Translations under genes and position numbers: made by a program
The notes under the pieces: generated by a model
Told to the model about the DNA's origin: nothing
Database searches by the model: none
Seen by the model: only the letters and a program-made list of their open reading frames with translations
Part shown: one piece after another, positions 47,150-47,377 of the stretch
How positions within the stretch are numbered: position 1 is the first letter of the stretch
Layout of the letters: each line of letters opens with the position of its first letter
NCBI RefSeq assembly: GCF_016026235.1
Contig: NZ_CP065613.1
Source: Escherichia coli
Lineage (GTDB): Bacteria > Pseudomonadota > Gammaproteobacteria > Enterobacterales > Enterobacteriaceae
Strand: one strand, 5' to 3'
DNA: 64,000 nt

Positions 47150-47335
47150 TTGGGGATGTGGCTGGCCGAAAATGAAGGGGTGAAGTTCTGGCTCAATGTG
47201 CTGACTGAACTGAAAAAACGCGGTTGGTCGCCCTACCTTTTCATCAAGCCAGTAGTCTGCCCACCACAGCATCATTTCTCTGCGCTTATCGAGATACTGA
47301 GCATGGTTGTAAATTCAGCTAACCCAGTGCGTTGA
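47150..47335 (+). pseudogene. remnant of an IS256-family (mutator-type) transposase gene
   Basis: ORF begins MGMWLAENEGVKFWLNVLTELKKRG, a motif from the middle of IS256-family transposases, then loses similarity. Confidence 0.45.
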
Positions 47336-47342
47336 CAAAAAA

Positions 47343-47377
47343 TTAGCGCAAGAGGACAAAAAATCACCTTGCGCTAA
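47343..47377. promoter_or_regulatory. sib / tI-like hairpin (int retroregulation site)
   Basis: Inverted repeat TTAGCGCAAG...CTTGCGCTAA flanked by A/T runs, at the lambda sib position just outside the P arm. Confidence 0.55.

Follow-up and report, generated by a model that had tools for sequence, protein, structure and literature searches.

IS1414 is an insertion sequence (IS) of the IS256 family, in which astA (EAST1) lies inside the transposase gene. In lambda, sib/tI retroregulates int and also serves as an intrinsic terminator. Degraded pieces of IS256-family elements or IS1414 are found in phage 434 and in a prophage of O157:H7 (nleF/nleH/nleA), among effector genes of type III secretion systems (T3SS), in the stretch from the tail-fibre genes to att. 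The gene ipaHa is a 1764-bp MxiE-regulated chromosomal gene with a MxiE box (Bongrand et al., PMC3299695). Here, an 87-bp piece of an IS1414-like transposase gene is described in a lambda-like prophage of Escherichia coli, in a stretch of 64,000 nucleotides of contig NZ_CP065613.1 (assembly GCF_016026235.1), which is called the window below. The piece lies between ipaHa and the P arm of attR, where a sequence-only reading of this DNA had placed an IS remnant. It is very probably an inert scar of IS1414, left by deletion or illegitimate recombination and passively inherited with the ipaHa cargo. The pieces in phage 434 and O157:H7 are other parts of the IS, with other breakpoints and beside other effectors. 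Since the breakpoints and the effectors differ, they are independent scars.

The blastn search with full IS1414, taken from an E. coli plasmid, gave 47138–47224 as the sole match in the window (87 bp, 94.3% identity, E = 2.7e-33). The closest plasmid copies of IS1414 are 95.4% identical to the fragment, and the identity to IS1414 copies overall is 94–95%. Among 5426 complete E. coli genomes, the IS1414-like stretch matches 1933 records, in which the features are annotated as IS256-like, IS1414 or ISEc39 transposase. The tblastn search placed the fragment at residues 194–228 of the 402-residue transposase, and the frame of the 87 bp matches residues 194–222. The 61-amino-acid open reading frame (ORF) overlapping the fragment, whose N-terminal sequence starts MGMWLAENEGVKFWLNVLTELKKRG, matched Pfam Transposase_mut PF00872 (Mutator-type; E = 3.2e-4, 20.2 bits) and the NCBIfam IS256 transposase NF033543 (E = 5.7e-4), in both cases only at residues 1–28. 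The PF00872 score is slightly below the gathering threshold of 21 bits because the fragment is very short. The sequence-only reading had seen an IS256-family motif in this short ORF and had taken it for an internal part of a transposase gene whose rest is gone; both points are borne out. It had also proposed 47130–47340 as the interval to search for IS homology. Homology was found there, but it is limited to 47138–47224, or possibly 47126–47224; the 12-bp leftward extension is seen against an ISSfl4-like copy and is weak (~10 of 15 bases).

The features of the interval are as follows.

47105–47121, minus strand: MxiE box, GGCGCGTTTTTTTAAAG, in the ipaHa promoter, identified in the sequence itself
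47138–47224, plus strand: internal piece of an IS1414-like (IS256-family) transposase gene, 87 bp, codons 194–222 of 402
47150–47335, plus strand: spurious 61-amino-acid ORF with a TTG start; residues 1–25 are IS-derived, residues 26–61 are the antisense of an integrase relic
47231–47314, minus strand: integrase relic, the 3'-terminal ~27 codons of a tyrosine integrase gene of the P22-like/P4 type, reading IYNHAQYLDKRREMMLWWADYWLDEK, with an in-frame stop before them
47343–47377, minus strand: lambda-type sib/tI hairpin followed by a U-run, recognized by alignment with lambda, 434 and HK97 and by folding
47378–47540, plus strand: lambda-type P arm of attR, with P1 GGTCACTAAT and P2 CATAGTGACTG, ending in the core TTATCAGTAAG

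The fragment differs from IS1414 in lacking the catalytic residues, astA, the inverted repeats and the target duplication. It has neither a start nor a stop, and about 7% of the transposase gene is left. The DDE triad of the IS1414 protein, which we take to be D166, D232 and E339, falls outside it, and no complete transposase with a catalytic triad is present. No other part of the 1.3-kb IS1414, including its ends and astA, matches in the window, and neither terminal inverted repeats nor a target-site duplication were found there. The embedded astA ORF of IS1414 begins 50 nt past the position where the fragment ends. Five substitutions separate the fragment from IS1414, and their split into three non-synonymous and two synonymous changes, a tiny sample, is consistent with no coding constraint. 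Because both junctions fall inside the transposase ORF, the fragment cannot be a product of transposition at its ends. The junctions stem from deletion or illegitimate recombination. At the right junction, the IS match ends at 47224 and the match to the adjoining phage block starts at 47222, sharing 2–3 bp of microhomology (GGT), which is typical of illegitimate recombination. The fragment appears to encode nothing, it would be unable to transpose, and it probably has no function of its own.

The junction between the IS fragment and the integrase relic was observed in 9 of the 5426 genomes; these nine are enteroinvasive E. coli (EIEC), and all of them carry ipaHa. The same junction without ipaHa was sought in these genomes and was not found. 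Each of the nine carrier chromosomes contains one matching place and no other sequence similar to the IS piece; therefore, no parent IS is present in the carriers. The restriction of the junctions to ipaHa and the lack of a parent IS indicate that the scar is old, orphaned and inherited with the ipaHa cargo. IS1414 is also absent from Shigella flexneri 301 (PMC6650469). Four IMG/VR contigs with ipaHa carry the whole unit, tfa'-ipaHa-IS'-int'-sib-P arm, with 99–100% identity. Exact-match scans of 100,044 species-representative genomes with a 36-mer of the IS'/int' junction and a 33-mer of the ipaHa promoter gave no match, a result uninformative on E. marmotae or other species.

A close counterpart is the prophage of E. 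coli FDAARGOS_943, where the 460 bp corresponding to 47047–47506 are 100% identical to the window. Its RefSeq pseudogene I6H00_RS10180 and the equivalents in eight other ipaHa-carrying E. coli genomes show the layout seen here: tfa, ipaHa, a partial transposase and a partial hypothetical protein. In the NCBI Prokaryotic Genome Annotation Pipeline (PGAP), identical DNA is labelled as a pseudogene of a partial transposase ("transposase, incomplete, missing N- and C-terminus"). The chromosomal site of the unit varies: it is yacH here, bio/ybhB in FDAARGOS_943 and near the alpha-2-macroglobulin gene in EIEC CFSAN029787, so that the latter two differ from the window in the location of the prophage. 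In CFSAN029787 (locus L013, 3001–5487), the unit is joined to another phage type (baseplate J/gp47, DUF2612), only a 117-bp fragment of tfa is present, and the P arm is cut ~55 bp short of the core.

The IS piece does not accompany ipaH genes in general. The IMG/VR sample included 48 ipaH loci, 30 of which, the four ipaHa loci among them, retain upstream sequence, and in this sample the IS piece was not found beside any other ipaH paralog. The upstream neighbours of the other paralogs are IS1 and IS3-family transposases, a DinI-like gene and a methyltransferase. As the other paralogs have other neighbours, the IS1414 piece is specific to ipaHa. The sequence-only reading had suggested that the ipaH cargo either arrived with an IS element or was later scarred by one. 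The comparison of the tfa–attP interval it had proposed agrees with this in that both junctions occur with ipaHa and never without it, but the data cannot separate the two possibilities. In the literature on ipaH together with IS1414, only the E. marmotae paper (PMC6650469) was found, and it does not include this junction.

The right neighbour of the fragment is the 3' end of a foreign integrase gene, within a conserved block at ~47222–47332, of which 47225–47332 is the non-IS interval. The sequence-only reading had put the sib hairpin immediately beyond the IS remnant; the hairpin is there, but this block lies in between. In related prophages, the corresponding position reads IYNHAQYLDKRREMMQWWADWLDEKVE and then a stop. 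When the 27-residue consensus was compared by tblastn with the annotated full-length integrases of the P22-like phages IME10, Kapi1, vB_EcoP-683R2 and g341c, it matched their C-termini (E = 1e-9 to 1e-12), and it also matched P4 int weakly. The relic has the C-terminal motif with the catalytic tyrosine and corresponds to the ends of full-length integrases. A full-length integrase with a catalytic domain is not present, as only ~27 codons are left after the in-frame stop, and PGAP labels the relic as incomplete or as a partial hypothetical protein. Phage homology extends from ~47222–47235 onward in 434, ev099, JEP4, Huey and thousands of E. coli prophages, and many lambdoid and P22-like prophages have this block beside sib. 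The homology to lambda, HK97 and HK106 starts only at ~47333, and lambda and HK97 do not have the block. The integrase relic represents another scar, older than the IS fragment and presumably resulting from an exchange of integration modules.

Ahead of the relic or of sib, a hairpin containing TTGC-N6-TTGC is found in 434, JEP4, lambda (locus L005, ~640–680) and P22-like prophages, and in 434 it is annotated as CII binding sites (locus L002, 2948–2971). The window lacks the terminator-like hairpin with a CII-site-like motif that 434, JEP4 and lambda have. In this prophage, it was replaced by the ipaHa cargo.

The ORF at 47150–47335 is not a truncated gene but a chimera, in which an IS part in sense is followed by integrase sequence in antisense. 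Its 61 codons are open and the sequence is kept in all carriers, as would be expected of a real small gene, namely a domesticated piece of a transposase with expression from the end of the prophage. This is extremely unlikely, however, since the ORF starts with TTG and is missing from the PGAP gene calls, the 36 residues at its C-terminus are antisense to the integrase relic coded on the opposite strand, and its IS part amounts to 29 codons between the catalytic residues. The Pfam match is confined to residues 1–28, and the whole ORF exists only where the two unrelated scars are fused. Another interpretation, that the resemblance to IS256-family transposases is a chance motif in non-coding DNA, could appeal to the Pfam score just under the threshold, but its probability is negligible in view of the 94–95% DNA identity to IS1414 over 87 bp (E = 1e-28 to 1e-33). 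The IS1414 matches, both by blastn and in the E. coli genome comparison, refute it.

It is also very unlikely that a function as spacer or upstream promoter element accounts for the retention of the IS fragment and the integrase relic, in which case they would separate the MxiE-dependent promoter from tI/sib or modulate H-NS silencing. The position of the fragment may seem to favour such a role. It begins only 5–17 bp beyond the MxiE box, as if the deletions had ended just short of the promoter, and the unit is conserved across chromosomal sites and phage types. However, a fragment of ~67 bp from ipaHa, ending 8 bp beyond the MxiE box, is already an active promoter regulated by the type III secretion apparatus (PMC3299695); therefore, the IS piece is not needed for ipaHa promoter activity. 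In addition, the G+C content of the fragment is 51%, unlike the A+T-rich targets of H-NS, and other ipaH paralogs are served by unrelated upstream DNA. The homology within the ipaH family, in the comparison with ipaH4.5, extends to 47116. The box at 47105–47121 differs at three positions from the sequence which we take to be the MxiE consensus. The only working elements near the scar are the ipaHa promoter and, putatively, the tI/sib terminator.

The interpretation as an inert scar implies the following history. An IS1414-like element would once have resided in the cargo region of a lambdoid phage, between the tail-fibre assembly gene and attP, adjoining ipaHa. Deletions or illegitimate recombination would then have reduced it to an 87-bp segment from the central part of its transposase gene. 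At the left edge, the deletions would have ended just short of the minimal MxiE-dependent promoter of ipaHa, which the fragment abuts, and at the right edge, the GGT microhomology would have fused the fragment to the older integrase scar just outside sib/tI. Afterwards, the fragment would have been inherited passively within the unit. The fragment marks the right-hand edge of the cargo.

Two points weigh against this interpretation. Intermediates that retain more of the IS were not found, so the order of events above is a proposed one. The fragment is 100% conserved among the carriers, which could in principle reflect selection; since the flanking non-coding DNA is equally conserved, this conservation is explained by recent common descent.

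The orphan piece may also be a tag of provenance. The ipaHa unit might have been assembled in a host or phage lineage with active IS1414 and then spread as a block, by recombination in the flanking phage homology, into Shigella and EIEC lacking IS1414 and into at least two phage types. This idea is tentative, and we regard it as rather unlikely. The data behind it consist of the carriers without a parent IS and the block at three chromosomal sites. An Escherichia marmotae-like background, which carries ipaH genes of its own along with dozens of IS1414 copies (PMC6650469), could be the source.

This is an ordinary finding, of little consequence except for clean annotation, in which the ORF at 47150–47335 should not appear as a gene. 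The partial transposase annotation by PGAP was already available, and ipaHa with its MxiE promoter, as well as sib and attP, can be found in textbooks or publications. What is new is the exact anatomy, in which two scars are stacked and the ORF is chimeric, and the observation that scar and ipaHa are strictly inherited together. From ipaHa to attR, an IS1414 piece and the 3' end of an integrase gene are stacked next to a putatively working sib/tI and the P arm. In Shigella and EIEC, the scar can conveniently serve as a lineage marker of the prophage end with ipaHa. It also illustrates how the effector cargo that lambdoid phages carry at the tail-fibre/att end is bounded by debris of past recombination.

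Beyond the two scars, the prophage end is of the lambda type. The sequence-only reading described the sib hairpin at 47343–47377 and the P arm as lambda-like and intact, and the alignment to lambda and the fold agree with it. Read in the direction of int transcription, the sequence just beyond the P arm contains an extended G+C-rich hairpin with a U-run after it. On the minus strand, the hairpin folds with -28.2 kcal/mol (z = -5.5) and is followed by UUUUUUG. The homologous site in HK97 is annotated as the sib retroregulation site. In comparison with lambda, the hairpin arms are identical, and the U-run and the arm-type sites are kept, as is the location with respect to P1/P2; the differences are one substitution in the loop region, which changes a G-U pair to G-C, and one extra A. 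A simple terminator scan missed tI/sib owing to the loop rules of the scan, although the fold reveals the hairpin, and an Rfam scan of 44900–48800 gave no family. The orientation of tI/sib would suit the stopping of transcripts from the truncated yacH before the ipaHa promoter. P1 is identical to that of lambda, P2 has one mismatch, which is common to 434, and the lambda spacing to the core is kept. The core sequence is common to attL and attR. Its overlap region, TTATCAG, differs from TTTATAC in lambda attP. The corresponding P arm of FDAARGOS_943, in which this prophage end is located at the canonical bio/ybhB attB with the lambda core, is essentially identical.

On the plus strand, rightwards, the prophage end consists of the tail fibre gene, tfa, ipaHa and a 460-bp non-coding stretch, followed by host yacH (DUF3300) and acnB.

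43075–44529: tail fibre gene
44480–45103: tfa, coding for a DUF4376 protein
45104–45282, no strand: spacer between tfa and ipaH, 179 bp, the left edge of the cargo
45283–47046, minus strand: ipaHa, 1764 bp, a T3SS effector E3 ubiquitin ligase gene carried as prophage cargo
47507–48595, minus strand: N-terminal part of yacH
103–789, minus strand: C-terminal part of yacH

The spacer at the left edge is 97–100% conserved and is kept, together with the 3' end of tfa (44900–45103), beside almost all prophage-borne ipaH paralogs. The paralogs sharing it (loci L015–L061) are only 65–99% identical in protein sequence, with upstream flanks that are unrelated. At 45216–45250 on the plus strand, between the convergent tfa and ipaHa, there is a G+C-rich hairpin, GAGGCCCGGGGGCGGGCCTC, with TGTTTTT after it, which is likely to be a terminator.

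The prophage interrupts yacH at a non-canonical site, with attL at 794–804 and attR at 47530–47540, both containing TTATCAG. This location is either a secondary-site insertion or a natural variant in site affinity. The lambda-type int (877–1946, minus strand) is split by a frameshift into two overlapping ORFs, 1551–1946 for the N-terminal part and 877–1569 for the C-terminal part. With int split, the prophage is probably unable to excise. Iteron-like tandem repeats of the TATCCCTCAAAACGAGGGA type are found at 13597–13674 within the ORF 13250–14188, and they look like a lambda-type replication origin in an O-like gene.
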